Of a stretch of DNA of 6,109 nucleotides, positions 2,737-6,109 are shown piece by piece. The notes beneath the pieces are model-generated. The model made no database searches. It had not been told where the DNA came from and worked only from the letters and a program-made list of their open reading frames with translations. The first letter of the stretch is position 1. Each line of letters starts with the position of its first letter. This DNA is from a virus (Duplodnaviria > Heunggongvirae > Uroviricota > Caudoviricetes), in IMG/VR virus record IMGVR_UViG_2778261418_000002, positions 1 through 6,109 of that record; one strand, 5' to 3'. The translations under genes and the position numbers were made by a program.

Positions 2737-3402
2737 TCAAACAAACCCAGCCGCTTTCCGGCGTTCATATTCCTGTTTCAGCAACTCAATTGGCGTTGGT
2801 CCCGCAGGACGTATGGGTGCTGCCAGTTGCCTACGGACGGGTGGAACACTCAGTCCGTTACCAACATGCTTTGCCCATTTCGTCAGCTGCCGTTCTGCAA
2901 GCCGTTTTAACTCCCCCTCGGTCATCTGCCGCTCAATCCCCTTTGAACGCATCTCGAGGCAAATGTGATACAGCACGGGCTGAGGCCACGGATATTTATC
3001 GCTTCCGTCGTATCGCCAGGACTCATTGCGCCAGCGGCGATATTCCTCCATCACGTTATCCACCGTCAGACCAAATGGATTTGCCCCGCTCTCCGAAATC
3101 AGCGCCACAAACTCAGCCAGGTCCGGAGGCCATGTTTCACCCGCCCGGCAGCGGTCCATGCACTGGCGGCAGACCTGCCGGATTTGCTGCTCAGTCATCG
3201 CGCCAATCTGTACAATCCAGAGCTTCGAAGGTGCGGCCCCGTTCTTCTGGGTCCAGCGGTTCGAATAAATCTCCCCCATGAGTTCCCACAGCTTCCAGGC
3301 AGTTTCCGTCGTTGATAAATCCGTTTTCACGTTCCCACTGCTCACGTGCTGCCCGAATTTCCTGAACTGCCCGTGATGCGGTGCCACCTGGTGCTGCTGC
3401 AT
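2737..3402 (-). CDS. replication protein P-like (lambda P family helicase loader)
   Basis: C-terminal two thirds align by eye to lambda P as I recall it ([19 protein letters not shown] / [13 protein letters not shown] versus lambda AESYPWKSNAHYWLVTNLY / TDAELRRKAADEL). ATG at 3402-3400 has a strong SD (AAGGGGG, about 6 nt spacing) but overlaps the O-like ORF by about 212 nt out of frame. Alternative in-frame ATG at 3198-3196 forms ATGACTGA with the O-like stop. Start uncertain. Confidence 0.75.
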
Positions 3403-4231
3403 GGTTTACCCCCTTGCTGACTGGTTTAGCCTGCGCCCTGACGTGATTTACGTGACGGGCGAATTTCTGCTCCCACTGAACCTGCGTGAAAACTTTACCC
3501 TCCGCTGCCCAGTAGTCCCGGAAGGCGGCAAGTTCAGCTGGTGTAAATTCCGGCTCCGGCAGAGCCACTCCCCACAGAGCCGCCCGTCGTCGAAAATCCG
3601 GCGACGGATGCCAGCCATCGGTCATCGGAAATTTCCCGATGGGTTCGCTCAGGCCTTCCAGGTAATCAGGTTCCGATGTTTGCAACGGCACGCCATTTGC
3701 CTCACTGACCGGAGCACTCTCGCGCACGCGCGCGTTATGTGTGGGGTTTAATTCTTTATCTGTATCTTTATCTGTCGTGACTCGTCGTGACATGTCGTGA
3801 CATATGCGTGACTCGTCGCGCGCCCCCTCATTCTGTTTTCGTAATTTTTCCCTCTCGCGCTGCGCTCTCTTGCGCTCTGCCGGGGATTTCGCGGTTTGTG
3901 AAACGTTGCCATTGTCCTCTTTCAGTACCTGGCGTTTTTCCCATCCACTGATCAAATCTCCATCAAGTACCCGCCCCTGCATTGCCTGTAAAATTGAATC
4001 AATTACTTCTTCCGTCACATCAAGCGCACTTGCTAAATCTTCCGTCGTGACATCAATGTGACCACGTAGTGACACGCCGTGACATGTCGTGACATTTCGT
4101 GACGCGCTCACCAGAAGGTGGATATACACAGCCATCACTGTTGCGATTGGCTGCCCTGACACCCTGGCAATTGTTCGCCACTTAGGGTCATTTGGCATGT
4201 CATGCCATAATCTGAGCCAGGCGTTAGCCAT
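3191..4231 (-). CDS. putative replication initiator (lambda O position; YdaU/DUF1376-like by recollection)
   Basis: Track ORF 3191..4237 begins with GTG. Preferred start is ATG at 4231-4229 ([18 protein letters not shown]...) with GAGGTG SD. Sits between the CII-like and P-like genes as O does in lambda. Contains two embedded GTGAC repeat arrays and an AT-rich block, as ori lambda lies inside O. The family name is from memory. Confidence 0.65.
3775..3812 (+). repeat. iteron-like array A: four direct (T)CGTGAC repeats at 10-11 bp spacing
   Basis: GTGAC at 3777, 3787, 3797 and 3808. Preceded by an AT-rich block with two ~11-bp direct repeats (tctttatctg, 3752-3774) and an alternating CG tract (3721-3734); followed by GCGCGCC. 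Confidence 0.55.
4044..4103 (+). repeat. iteron-like array B: six direct GTGAC-core repeats at 10-11 bp spacing
   Basis: GTGAC at 4047, 4058, 4069, 4079, 4089 and 4099, all in the same orientation. The motif falls in all three codon phases of the O-like frame (peptide [20 protein letters not shown]). Confidence 0.55.
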
Positions 4232-4302
4232 ACTCACCTCTTTTGATACCGAATCTTTTTACTCACAAATTGCCGGAAGTGATCTGGTATGAATATCGCG
4301 AG

Positions 4303-4728
4303 TCAATGCACAGCCACAATATTTCCTGCAGGGCCACCACGATTCATCTGGTTGAAACCAGCGATCGCCACTGCGACAAAATCATCAGCGTCTCTCACCA
4401 GTCGTTCCCGCGTCTCCACCAGCTCCCGAAAATAGGCTGAACTGTGGCTGCGCATTCGGGCCACCAGCAGAGGTGGCATTGCTTTTTCGATCGCTGGTAA
4501 CAACGCCTGAATTTTTTTAACCGCATCAGGGGTGTCTTTCTCCACCCAGCGGAATATTTTCTGAGTATTGCGAGCCAGGGCTTCCGGATGGCTGTCGTCA
4601 TATAGCTCCGGGAACGTCATACCAAGCTCAAAATAAGCCCGGGTTATTTCAGCTGCCGGAACTTTTTCACCGTCCGGATGCGCCCAGACATTCATCGCCA
4701 TGCGGATGTGTTCATGCTTGATTTTCAT
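4303..4728 (-). CDS. ydaT: YdaT-like protein (CII functional analog in Rac/CP-933P-type prophages)
   Basis: Track ORF 4303..4728, 141 aa. Begins MKIKHEHI and ends IVAVH, matching my recollection of E. coli YdaT in length and termini. Its ATG overlaps the stop of the Cro-like gene (TAATG). Occupies the cII position. Confidence 0.7.
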   Translation of the reverse strand: MKIKHEHIRMAMNVWAHPDGEKVPAAEITRAYFELGMTFPELYDDSHPEALARNTQKIFRWVEKDTPDAVKKIQALLPAIEKAMPPLLVARMRSHSSAYFRELVETRERLVRDADDFVAVAIAGFNQMNRGGPAGNIVAVH

Positions 4729-4940
4729 TAATCATTCTTTCCTTCGTTCGAGGTGCTATCCTGCTTCTTGTAAAGTTCTGGGTTGTATTTCAATTCACCG
4801 TTAGTAATTTCATCCAGTTCCATTGCGCGAAGTTTGGGAATAACTGCTTTCCACCGCACAACAGCCACATGTGAAATTCCAAGAGCCTCAGCTACTAGTC
4901 GCTTTTTTTTGAAATAGCGCAGAACATCATCTTTGAACAT
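4728..4940 (-). CDS. Cro-like HTH regulator (YdaS/DicC-like)
   Basis: Track ORF 4728..4940, 70 aa. ATG at 4940-4938 with AGGAG SD at about 6 nt. HTH signature KRLVAEALGISHVAVVRWK. First gene of the operon divergent from the repressor. Confidence 0.75.
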   Translation of the reverse strand: MFKDDVLRYFKKKRLVAEALGISHVAVVRWKAVIPKLRAMELDEITNGELKYNPELYKKQDSTSNEGKND

Positions 4941-4969
4941 AAAACTCTCCTGTTATTTCGAGCGGGAGG

Positions 4970-4983
4970 GTAACAATAGTTAC
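4970..4983. promoter_or_regulatory. operator-like palindrome GTAAC-AATA-GTTAC (proximal to cro)
   Basis: Perfect 5-bp inverted arms with a 4-bp spacer in the cro/cI intergenic region. Lies where the -10 of a leftward promoter would fall, given the perfect TTGACA -35 at 4996-4991 on the - strand. Confidence 0.45.
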
Positions 4984-5017
4984 ATAGAAATGTCAACCAT
5001 AGCAACATCACTTGGTA

Positions 5018-5031
5018 GTAACATTGGTTAC
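5018..5031. promoter_or_regulatory. operator-like palindrome GTAAC-ATTG-GTTAC (abuts repressor start codon)
   Basis: Same half-sites as the 4970-4983 site. Ends 1 nt before the ATG at 5032. Contains TAACAT, a possible -10 for a leaderless repressor transcript. Confidence 0.45.
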
Positions 5032-5706
5032 ATGAAAAACACTATCAGCGAACGTATTCGGAATCGTCGAAAAGACGTTGGATTAACCCAACAGCAGGTT
5101 GCGAAAGCAATCGGCATATCTCGTGTATCCGTAACAAAATGGGAAAATGGCTCTTCAAAACCTGACGGTGAGAATTTGCATCTACTGTCAAAATTGCTTT
5201 CCAAATCTCCTGAATGGATTCTTTATGGAAAGGACTGTCACGATAAAACCGATGATCTGCGTCTGAATCAGTACCCTTACATTAGTGACAACATCGCCCG
5301 GTTGCCCGTTTTAACGTGGGAACAGGCTGGTTATTGGGATATGAGTTGTCCAGTAACCGAGATTCCTGGTATTAAGAATTGGGTTGATGTCATGACAAAA
5401 ACCGCTGAAAACTCTTTTTTATTGCATGTTGAGGGAGATGCGATGACAAACTCTAACGGCCTCCCAACCATCCCCGACGGATCTACCGTGCTGATCACAC
5501 CATGCTCAAGTAACATTAGAGAACTGGTGGGAAAAATAATCTTAATCCAATTGGAAGGAACGCCAAACGTAACACTAAAAAAAGTTGCGATTGACGGACC
5601 AAACATCTATCTGTTGTCACTGAATCCGCTTTACAAACCCATCGAACTGAATGGTGGTTACACCATTAAAGGTAAAGTTTCACAAATACATCAATACTTA
5701 GACTGA
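5032..5706 (+). CDS. CI-like prophage repressor: N-terminal XRE-type HTH plus C-terminal LexA/S24-like domain with Ala at the nucleophile position
   Basis: Track ORF 4933..5706 begins with TTG. Preferred start is ATG 5032 (MKNTISERIRNRRKDVGLTQQQVAKAIGISRVSVTKWENG), which leaves both operators intergenic; ATG 4990 is an alternative. C-terminal domain aligns by eye to lambda CI/LexA: QAG at the Ala-Gly cleavage position, VEGDAM where lambda has VEGNSM and LexA VSGMSM, and TLKKV...LNPLY versus lambda TFKKL...LNPQY. Confidence 0.8.
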   Translation: MKNTISERIRNRRKDVGLTQQQVAKAIGISRVSVTKWENGSSKPDGENLHLLSKLLSKSPEWILYGKDCHDKTDDLRLNQYPYISDNIARLPVLTWEQAGYWDMSCPVTEIPGIKNWVDVMTKTAENSFLLHVEGDAMTNSNGLPTIPDGSTVLITPCSSNIRELVGKIILIQLEGTPNVTLKKVAIDGPNIYLLSLNPLYKPIELNGGYTIKGKVSQIHQYLD

Positions 5707-5711
5707 GTCAG

Positions 5712-5738
5712 AACCCGCATTCATTGCGGGTTTTTTAT
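5712..5738 (+). terminator. rho-independent terminator of the repressor gene
   Basis: 8-bp stem AACCCGCA / TGCGGGTT with loop TTCAT, followed by TTTTTTAT, 6 nt after the stop codon. Confidence 0.65.
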
Positions 5739-5768
5739 GCCCTCAAGTGTACCTTTTGCAACATTGTA

Positions 5769-5797
5769 TTGACTCTAATGGTAACTCTTGTTACCTT
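5769..5797 (+). promoter_or_regulatory. putative rightward promoter (PL-like) with embedded operator GGTAAC-TCTT-GTTACC
   Basis: TTGACT (5769-5774), 17-bp spacer, TACCTT (5792-5797; weak -10). The 16-bp palindrome at 5780-5795 has the same half-sites as the two operators in the cro/cI intergenic region and covers the spacer and -10. Confidence 0.4.
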
Positions 5798-5975
5798 AAC
5801 AACATACCAACCCACCCCGCCCCACAGAACGCAGGGCAATACTTCGAGTTACCAGGCAGTGGTCAGGGGGTAAGTAGCCAGCCCGAGGCGTAAGAACATG
5901 ACGGCAGGGTTCAACTTTAACTATGCAGCAGGTTTTTGTTCCGCTACCCCGGCGTTAAGGGGAAATGAGGTCAAC

Positions 5976-6109
5976 ATGGATACTATCGATCTTGGCAACA
6001 GCGAATCTCTGGTATGTGGCGTGTTCCCCAATCAGGACGGTACGTTCACCGCGATGACGTATACCAAAAGCAAAACGTTTAAAACCGAAAATGGTGCCCG
6101 TCGCTGGCT
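5976..6109 (+). CDS. hypothetical early-left gene, partial (continues beyond window end)
   Basis: ATG at 5976 with GAGG 5 nt upstream; frame open to the window end (MDTIDLGNSESLVCGVFPNQDGTFTAMTYTKSKTFKTENGARRW...). In-frame upstream ATG at 5898 is an alternative start. Resembles a small Rac-region protein I vaguely recall; no name assigned. Confidence 0.5.
   Translation, partial: MDTIDLGNSESLVCGVFPNQDGTFTAMTYTKSKTFKTENGARRW

Follow-up and report, generated by a model that had tools for sequence, protein, structure and literature searches.

The window is the whole stretch of 6,109 nt and contains the immunity and replication region of a lambdoid prophage. The features are listed in Table 1. 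A CI-type immunity repressor gene and a divergent cro-type gene have operators between them, and a further operator is located beyond the repressor gene, which is the classical OR / cI / OL layout. The genes leftward of cro are all on the minus strand. They encode a YdaT-family protein at the position of cII and an O-like initiator, followed by a lambda-P-like helicase loader, DUF1627, a DUF977/Ren-like gene and three further small genes.

A search for the operator pattern GGTAAC-N4-GTTAC gave 5 matches, where 1.7 are expected. The stem-loop and T-run found directly 3' of the repressor stop codon probably represent an intrinsic terminator; the segment 5704–5745 folds with a free energy of -15.7 kcal/mol (z=-3.7). 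A consensus promoter and terminator scan of positions 4880–6000 listed no promoter and missed this hairpin.

Table 1 Positions of genes, sites and sequence motifs in and around the immunity region of the window
Feature	Positions	Strand	Remarks
O-like initiator with DnaT domain	3191–4237	-	
YdaT-family protein at cII position	4303–4728	-	Pfam YdaT_toxin; phrog_163 'CII-like transcriptional activator', E=1.3e-44
cro-type gene, P22_Cro family, 70 aa	4728–4940	-	PF14549, E=2.8e-16; PHROG transcriptional regulator
OR-like operator array	4969–5032		between repressor and cro; from GGTAAC-N4-GTTAC pattern search
GGTAAC-N4-GTTAC sites	4969–4984 and 5017–5032		second site overlaps ATG 5032
RefSeq start of repressor	ATG 4990	+	238 aa, WP_000103683.1, label 'LexA family protein'
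Invariant ATGTCAACC	4996–4991	-	between the two OR-like sites; position and strand are those of its TTGACA
CI-type immunity repressor gene	5032–5706	+	ORF, 224 aa from ATG 5032
HTH_3 domain	5056–5220	+	Pfam HTH_3; 42% identity and TM 0.94 to P22 C2 N-terminal domain
Putative recognition helix R-V-S-V-T-K-W-E-N-G	5122–5151	+	conserved in Ala- and Ser-type clusters
Ala99-Gly100 ('eqAGyw', W-E-Q-A-G)	5326–5331	+	aligned to lambda CI scissile Ala111-Gly112 ('vQAGmf')
E-G-D-A-M-T motif	5431–5448	+	GAG GGA GAT GCG ATG ACA
Lys183-Lys184 (T-L-K-K-V)	5578–5583	+	Lys183 ('tlKkv') aligned to lambda CI general base Lys192 ('tfKkl')
Stem-loop and T-run	5711–5736	+	directly 3' of repressor stop; probable intrinsic terminator
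Perfect palindromic operator GGTAACTCTTGTTACC (OL-like)	5780–5795		0 mismatches; upstream of ydfA/DUF1391-like gene
ydfA/DUF1391-like gene	start 5977		gene order from annotated relatives

The repressor and the residue at its nucleophile position

Most homologues of the repressor start at the MK of position 5032. Pfam analysis of the protein shows an HTH_3 domain (PF01381, residues 9–63, E=2e-16) and a Peptidase_S24 domain (PF00717, residues 92–216, E=9.6e-17) whose score of 61 bits is above the cut-off of 23.3. The PHROG match is to phrog_4, transcriptional repressor, with E=2.9e-43. The best PDB sequence match is the lambda repressor chain 3bdn_A (phmmer, E=2e-14), where the query segment 'hvegdAmtn' lies over 'eVEGNSMTa' and the alignment is ungapped through the motif. 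Ala137 of the repressor is in the column of lambda CI Ser149, with chain positions counted in the phmmer alignment. The alanine codon is GCG at 5440–5442, and the residue is number 151 when counted from the RefSeq start. The initial annotation had read E-G-D-A-M-T here, with alanine in place of the S24 nucleophile, and both the codons and the lambda CI alignment confirm this reading. A check of the column assignment, by way of the alignments with lambda CI and with the family, reveals no serine at the nucleophile position. The threonine two residues downstream was considered as a replacement nucleophile and rejected, as it is also present in lambda CI (S-M-T).

The remainder of the cleavage site, which the initial annotation had described as intact, is so in the alignments with lambda CI and with the family. 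The W-E-Q-A-G and T-L-K-K-V motifs are present in all full-length Ala-type sequences examined except one, a Salmonella member that has Val-Gly at the scissile site, and the lysine general base is conserved in every full-length cluster member read. In a set of 78 sequences (77 homologues and the window), the nucleophile column is otherwise almost invariant, with serine in 72. Alanine is found in 5 sequences, which are the window and its nearest relatives only; the set also holds one decayed Arsenophonus sequence and one fragment. By these alignments the alanine is a real and specific departure and not alignment noise.

An AlphaFold2 model of the repressor has a pLDDT of 81, and its best Foldseek match is lambda CI. 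The C-terminal domain of the model has a TM score of 0.73 to both 2hnf, a cleavage-competent lambda fragment, and 8gmu, a RecA-bound structure. The fold matches include LexA structures with the serine replaced by alanine, i.e., LexA S119A, M. tuberculosis LexA S160A and P. aeruginosa LexA S125A (entries 1jhh, 1jhc, 6a2s and 8s7g). Serine to alanine at the S24 nucleophile is the standard substitution for obtaining a non-cleavable LexA or CI, and the 1987 study of Slilaty and Little is said to be the classical reference. The earlier description of the change as the textbook non-cleavable substitution is thus supported. By fold and architecture the repressor is of the LexA/CI type, but the catalytic serine is missing, and the protein should be classed among the non-peptidase homologues rather than the S24 autopeptidases.

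Distribution of the alanine and selection on the protein

The repressor gene is present in 702 of 5,426 complete E. coli genomes, with at least 80% of the query covered in all 702 records and at least 99% identity in 679. A 61-nt stretch that includes the GCG codon is identical in nearly all of 683 matching complete E. coli genomes. The Ala-type repressor is found in about 13% (about one in eight) of complete E. coli genomes, a count that is inflated by clonal lineages such as ST131.

The close family consists of five protein clusters at 90% identity (c1–c5). Cluster c1 is from E. coli and E. albertii and has 499 member sequences, the window included; its residue is alanine, encoded by GCG. 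The E. coli cluster c2 also has alanine (GCG), as does c4 from Salmonella enterica (GCA). Serine is present in c5 from Enterobacter bugandensis (TCG) and in c3 (TCA), which is found in E. coli, mostly STEC, and includes the Stx2a prophage repressor of O178:H19 2012C-4431. All full-length members read agree within each cluster, and serine is kept in c3, c5 and all 72 more distant homologues. The Ser-type c3 allele occurs in only 8 complete E. coli genomes, which gives a ratio of Ala-type to Ser-type of about 690 to 8. None of the 8 also has an Ala-type allele, with one place counted per record.

An artefact, i.e., a sequencing or assembly error or a misplaced column with a neighbouring residue as the true nucleophile, is extremely improbable. 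The same codon is found in hundreds of independent complete genomes, and two alanine codons, GCG and GCA, occur in separate clusters. The G-x-S-M segment aligns to lambda CI without a gap, and the flanking M-T-N is conserved. The alanine is a fixed trait of the clade and neither a sequencing error nor a private mutation.

By pairwise identities and in a neighbor-joining tree, whose bootstrap values are unreliable at some nodes after re-rooting, c3 falls among c1 and c2, c4 lies outside them and c5 is outermost. Because the Ser-type c3 groups among the Ala-type clusters c1 and c2, the residue is one that, on this topology, has changed at least twice. Two independent losses and one loss followed by a reversion require equal numbers of parsimony steps, on residues as well as on codons (TCG, TCA, GCA and GCG).

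Serine is present in 89 of 106 CI-like sequences of comparable length that represent clusters of 50% identity. About a dozen well-aligned representatives have threonine, alanine or another residue, and many of these also have a degenerate Ala-Gly site. Serine is lacking in about 10% of diverse CI-like cluster representatives, and the phenomenon therefore recurs. The clade of the window, with the nucleophile alone lost, looks like a more recent instance. A megablast search with the gene found no match among 50,697 phage records, and the best tblastn match has 43% identity. This absence was rejected as a sign of non-inducibility, since the Ser-type sister allele is equally absent.

The OR-like sites are conserved in clusters c1–c5, and an equivalent of the OL-like site is found 3' of the repressor in c1, c2, c3 and c5. 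Given the conservation of the operators and of the putative recognition helix from c1 to c5, the Ala- and Ser-type repressors probably share immunity specificity.

The Ala-type protein is well maintained. In a comparison of the two Ala-type clusters c1 and c2, dS is 0.59; the C-terminal domain has a dN/dS of 0.05 and the HTH domain one of 0.07, and the linker between the domains, at about 1, is the only part to evolve without constraint. Between clusters, dN/dS is 0.05–0.10 in both domains. The corresponding values within the Ser-type cluster do not fall below those of the Ala-type. The repressor ORF is an intact CDS in every record with listed features. Purifying selection on the C-terminal domain of the Ala-type protein is strong, and the gene is maintained by selection and is not a pseudogene. 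The low dN/dS at a dS of 0.59, together with the conserved OR and OL operators, implies that the Ala-type protein is functional.

The retention of Ala-Gly and lysine in nearly all Ala-type sequences, together with the degeneration of Ala-Gly in many other serine-less CI-like representatives, raises the question of whether the repressor is still cleaved. An S24 protein that has the serine, such as a homoimmune Ser-type repressor, a different CI or a LexA- or UmuD-like protein, could cut the repressor in trans, or another protease could act at the Ala-Gly bond, such that SOS or another signal still inactivates it. Intermolecular cleavage, of LexA and lambda CI in vitro and also by UmuD, was reportedly described by Kim and Little in 1993 and by McDonald and co-workers in 1998. 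LexA S119A and CI S149A, however, stay non-cleavable in vivo although wild-type S24 proteins are present. No regular partner is evident either, in that the Ala-type allele is absent from all 8 Ser-type genomes at the one place counted in each. The retained residues are uninformative at the observed divergence: the probability that four residues survive by chance at the 75% C-terminal-domain identity between c1 and c4 is about 0.3. Their retention was accordingly rejected as proof of continued use, and continued cleavage of the Ala-type protein is considered very unlikely.

Carrier prophages and candidate antirepressor genes

The identical protein WP_000103683.1 is found in three prophage backbones and sites, i.e., at yccA, from tRNA-Ser/mtfA to potB, and at potC. 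The carrier in UMNF18 is a decayed prophage at yccA. In MIN10 the protein is encoded by a near-complete HK97-like prophage with a frameshifted integrase, and in ECL27977 by a near-complete lambda-like prophage at potC with a frameshifted gpJ; the latter is the best overall match to the window, with 97% identity over 86%. Variants of 99% identity are encoded in O111:H8, by a heavily decayed, effector-carrying remnant at yccA, and in ST131 JJ1887, by an ompW prophage that looks complete and has int, xis and every virion module. An ISEcp1-blaCTX-M-15 unit is located inside the tape-measure gene of the JJ1887 prophage, and ISEc12 inside lom. The yccA copies of UMNF18 and O111:H8 have IS insertions and have lost structural genes, and their integrase is frameshifted or a remnant.

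The replication modules and integrases that flank the near-identical repressor differ between carriers, which indicates that the immunity module has recently been exchanged among lambdoid prophages. Near-complete carriers and a recent transfer from backbone to backbone would be hard to explain without some path to lytic growth.

The state of the carriers also bears on an alternative in which the substitution is a lesion selected by the host. The prophage would be locked in place, the repressor would be kept by the host for immunity and for the silencing of toxic genes (dicB, kil and lysis genes), the elements would be in the process of becoming defective, and no other route of induction would exist or be needed. 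The decay at yccA in O111:H8 and UMNF18 and the frameshifts in the MIN10 integrase and ECL27977 gpJ agree with this, and purifying selection on the repressor is expected here too. A predominance of the Ala-type in complete genomes is likewise expected if non-inducible prophages persist, but clonal lineages, ST131 among them, inflate the counts. A benefit to the host has a parallel in Salmonella, which is protected from ciprofloxacin and mitomycin C by removal of Gifsy-2 inducibility (PMC13320796). Against this, the alanine persists over a dS of about 0.6 in E. coli and into Salmonella, which is long for a dead-end element. The occurrence of an identical protein across backbones, replication modules and sites implies continuing horizontal spread, and the ST131 carrier has intact int and xis and a full set of virion genes. 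A host-selected lesion is considered an unlikely explanation.

If the repressor is a functional one that does not cleave itself, induction could be by way of an antirepressor, as had been suggested in the initial annotation. Candidate genes are present in some of the carriers. In the two near-complete carriers JJ1887 and ECL27977, gathering-score matches to the Rfam families isrK and C4 antisense RNA immediately precede a 45-codon 'ash' ORF and an antirepressor-like gene. The latter is of the Rha family in JJ1887, where it adjoins attR. In ECL27977 it has an ORF6N domain and is located about 2 kb past the left end of the window. This arrangement matches that of P1 immI (c4-icd-ant). It is also the same layout as isrK-orf45-anrP in Gifsy-1 (PMC4825925). 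A BRO-N antirepressor-like gene is present in UMNF18 in an adjacent element.

The MIN10 prophage has no isrK/C4-antirepressor module, and none was seen in the other loci examined, of which the Ser-type prophage was partly covered. A PHROG scan of all proteins of the window and of the unannotated proteins of the MIN10 prophage found no antirepressor. Searches for LexA boxes (CTGT-N8-ACAG and CTG-N10-CAG) in the MIN10, JJ1887 and ECL27977 loci gave chance-level or coding hits only, with no box at the antirepressor-like genes in these three carrier loci. An excess of LexA-box-like matches in the ECL27977 locus is most simply attributed to codon bias. A search for an antirepressor gene with the same operator motif as the repressor, as proposed earlier, found nothing of the kind; to our knowledge, known antirepressor systems are not wired through a shared operator motif. 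An antirepressor of the Rem type at the hokD-DUF968 position, as in Qin, was also considered and rejected, as the small gene at that position is unrelated to Rem. In Qin, Rem acts as the antirepressor of DicA (bioRxiv 10.1101/2023.04.14.536235). The part of the suggestion that stands is the presence of candidate genes in some carrier prophages; none has a LexA box, and MIN10 is without the module. The antirepressor route is a concrete lead, and the genes, identified by similarity, are candidates only.

Proposed behaviour of the repressor and its significance

The preferred interpretation, which is considered likely, is that the protein is a working immunity repressor that is unable to autocleave, such that any induction needs another route. 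The N-terminal HTH domain would bind the GGTAAC-N4-GTTAC operators on both sides of the repressor gene, and the C-terminal S24-fold domain may have been kept for dimerization and cooperative operator binding. No RecA-stimulated or alkaline self-cleavage is predicted because the nucleophile is missing. Without the serine, the Ala99-Gly100 bond would stay uncut upon formation of RecA filaments and repression would not be lifted directly through SOS, i.e., the protein would be a natural 'ind-minus' repressor. Ala-type prophages probably cannot sense SOS directly. Upon DNA damage, the lytic genes and the downstream division inhibitors of the dicB/kil type would remain silent unless another mechanism inactivates the repressor. 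The most likely other route would be an antirepressor, encoded by the prophage itself or by another one in the cell, or occasional stochastic switching by way of Cro.

The protein shares several properties with lambda CI and P22 C2: the HTH_3 domain and S24 fold, the divergent cro, the shared operator array, the second operator downstream, and the Ala-Gly site and lysine in the same alignment columns. It differs from lambda CI in having alanine in place of Ser149, with an identity of only about 25%. It differs from both in the operator half-sites, here GGTAAC/GTTAC, and in the presence of a YdaT-family protein at the cII position. The laboratory mutants LexA S119A and lambda CI S149A ('ind-minus') have the same substitution with the rest of the site intact, but here the change is natural, fixed in three clusters (E. 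coli, E. albertii and Salmonella) and found in a protein under purifying selection.

The non-cleaving LexA of cyanobacteria, SpsA of S. aureus and SipA of S. pyogenes are different proteins with a different biology, and the loss in them usually extends to further residues of the catalytic or cleavage site. They are similar to the present repressor in that the fold is kept and catalytic residues are lost (papers on the subject: PMC7567884, PMC4049620, PMC12414704). The repressors GfoR/GtgR of Gifsy, DicA of Qin, RacR of Rac and those of Sakai Sp6, Sp9 and Sp10 are similar in expectation, with no self-cleavage and with induction by an antirepressor or not at all (PMC3121763; bioRxiv 10.1101/2023.04.14.536235; PMC2669165). 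Their carriers are the same kind of prophage, with a ydfABC-dicF-dicB operon downstream. In contrast, the Gifsy/DicA-type repressors are about 135–150 aa and have no peptidase domain, whereas the present protein of 224 or 238 aa has a full S24 domain, the scissile bond and the lysine. By analogy it should work like these short non-cleavable repressors, without being one of them.

Prophage inducibility is usually predicted from domains: a repressor with HTH and Peptidase_S24 is taken as SOS-inducible, and absence of the peptidase domain is taken to mean that it is not (e.g. PMC2669165, PMC8951638). The O157 Sakai lambdoid prophages Sp6, Sp9 and Sp10, whose repressors have no peptidase domain, are not induced by mitomycin C, but Sp4, with a repressor that likewise has none, is still excised (PMC2669165). 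In a survey of Stx-phage CI proteins the serine is conserved in all clades that bear the S24 domain (PMC8951638). A search of the literature found no paper on the present protein or on natural Ser-to-Ala or otherwise nucleophile-dead CI-type phage repressors.

A broader proposal, which is speculative and has a low probability, is that serine and alanine represent a toggle within one homoimmune group. Ser-type members would sense SOS and Ala-type members would be blind to it, with the rest of the cleavage machinery kept. The Ala form would remain infectious by means of an isrK/C4-controlled antirepressor. Because the operators are shared, the Ala repressor would in addition be trans-dominant over a Ser-type Stx2a phage and suppress toxin induction. 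With respect to hosts, serine is found in Stx2a-converting prophages, and alanine in ST131, EHEC of the O111/O26 type, E. albertii and Salmonella.

The mechanism of the substitution is textbook knowledge, and SOS-blind prophages are already known. What is new is the abundance and maintenance of the Ala form, its mislabelling in annotation and the existence of Ser sister alleles that permit a direct test. The repressor breaks the domain rule: it is annotated as a 'LexA family protein / S24 family peptidase' and the nucleophile is absent, so that domain-based annotation would predict SOS inducibility for it. The nucleophile is a signal that is easy to add to annotation pipelines. With a reversion of one base (GCG to TCG) and Ser sister alleles, the family offers a natural experiment on prophage domestication.

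The carriers include the ST131 ompW prophage, with chromosomal blaCTX-M-15 in JJ1887, and the effector-carrying yccA remnant of O111:H8. If the repressor is truly non-cleavable, quinolones or mitomycin C would not trigger Ala-type prophages, and this would bear on the survival of lysogens under DNA-damaging antibiotics and on gene transfer. The Ser-type sister with the same operators controls Stx2a prophages, and the Ala-type repressor could thus affect toxin induction in mixed lysogens as well.

Start codon, transcript and linker of the repressor

In the region at window positions 4969-5034, the repressor start annotated in RefSeq, ATG 4990, lies within the operator array. The residues MK encoded at 5032 are the start in most homologues, and this second ATG overlaps the operator at 5017-5032. 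The 14-residue N-terminal extension that is annotated for the repressor is probably not real. There is a TAACAT hexamer at 5019-5024, 7 nt upstream of ATG 5032, and no Shine-Dalgarno sequence is present ahead of this ATG. The two properties suggest that the repressor mRNA from ATG 5032 is a leaderless transcript of the PRM type, like that of lambda cI.

In every comparison, dN/dS is about 0.3-1.0 for the inter-domain linker and 0.03-0.12 for the two domains that flank it. Within the 99% cluster, most of the amino acid differences are found in this linker (C71G, T75A). The mechanically defined P-like ORF and the O-like gene in the window overlap by about 210 nt; the P start in RefSeq relatives is later, giving a 462-nt gene with an 8 nt overlap with O.

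Features of the window and of two carrier prophages
Feature	Location	Strand	Description
P-like loader	window 2737-3402	-	mechanical ORF
O-like initiator	window 3191-4237	-	has DnaT DNA-binding domain
Inter-domain linker	window 5236-5301		repressor residues about 69-90
isrK/C4 module, JJ1887	L019 14209-15003		isrK (RF01394), C4 antisense RNA (RF01695), 45-codon 'ash' ORF, antirepressor-like gene
isrK/C4 module, ECL27977	L020 31890-32680		same four elements

The sister allele and the carrier prophages

The Stx2a-converting prophage of O178:H19 2012C-4431, located at the Qin site (rspB/ynfP), uses as its repressor the sister allele that keeps Ser at the nucleophile position (L002 8871-10111, 19944-20660). 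This Ser-type allele has 88% aa identity to the Ala-type repressor, and the two share their operators. None of the eight complete genomes that carry the Ser-type allele has the Ala-type allele. Both alleles are missing from 50,697 deposited phage genomes, where the best match shows 43% aa identity; despite this absence, 13% of complete E. coli genomes carry a member of the immunity group.

The ompW prophage of JJ1887 (ST131), an Ala-type carrier, holds ISEcp1-blaCTX-M-15 in its tape-measure gene (L013 38320-44808), and its lom gene is broken by an ISEc12 element (L019 4057-7242). In MIN10, the prophage borders on tRNA-Ser/mtfA at its integrase side and on potB at its tail side (L011 5281-6331 and 46652); potC adjoins the integrase of the ECL27977 prophage. 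These flanks suggest that the MIN10 chromosome has been rearranged between two prophages.

The isrK/C4 modules of JJ1887 and ECL27977 have a promoter-leader sequence in common and an arrangement identical to isrK-orf45-anrP of Gifsy-1. The antirepressor-like gene is of the Rha family in JJ1887 and is ORF6N in ECL27977. The module adjoins attR in the former and is in the nin region in the latter.

The nucleophile position in the CI-like family

In two insect-symbiont relatives the site is in further decay. P0028 from Arsenophonus nasoniae reads D-D-K-T instead of G-D-S-M, and the Ala-Gly is missing; P0010 keeps the Ser, with Ile-Ser replacing Ala-Gly.

In about a dozen of 106 diverse CI-like cluster representatives (P0143, P0156, P0164, P0168, P0174, P0208, P0216, P0232, P0240 and others), the nucleophile position is taken by Thr, Ala or another residue. 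Thr variants (D-D-T-M, G-D-T-M) are equal in frequency to Ala. The Ala-Gly site is also degenerate in many of the dozen or so representatives, and the Lys is usually retained. From these sequences, loss of the nucleophile seems to recur in the CI-like family.
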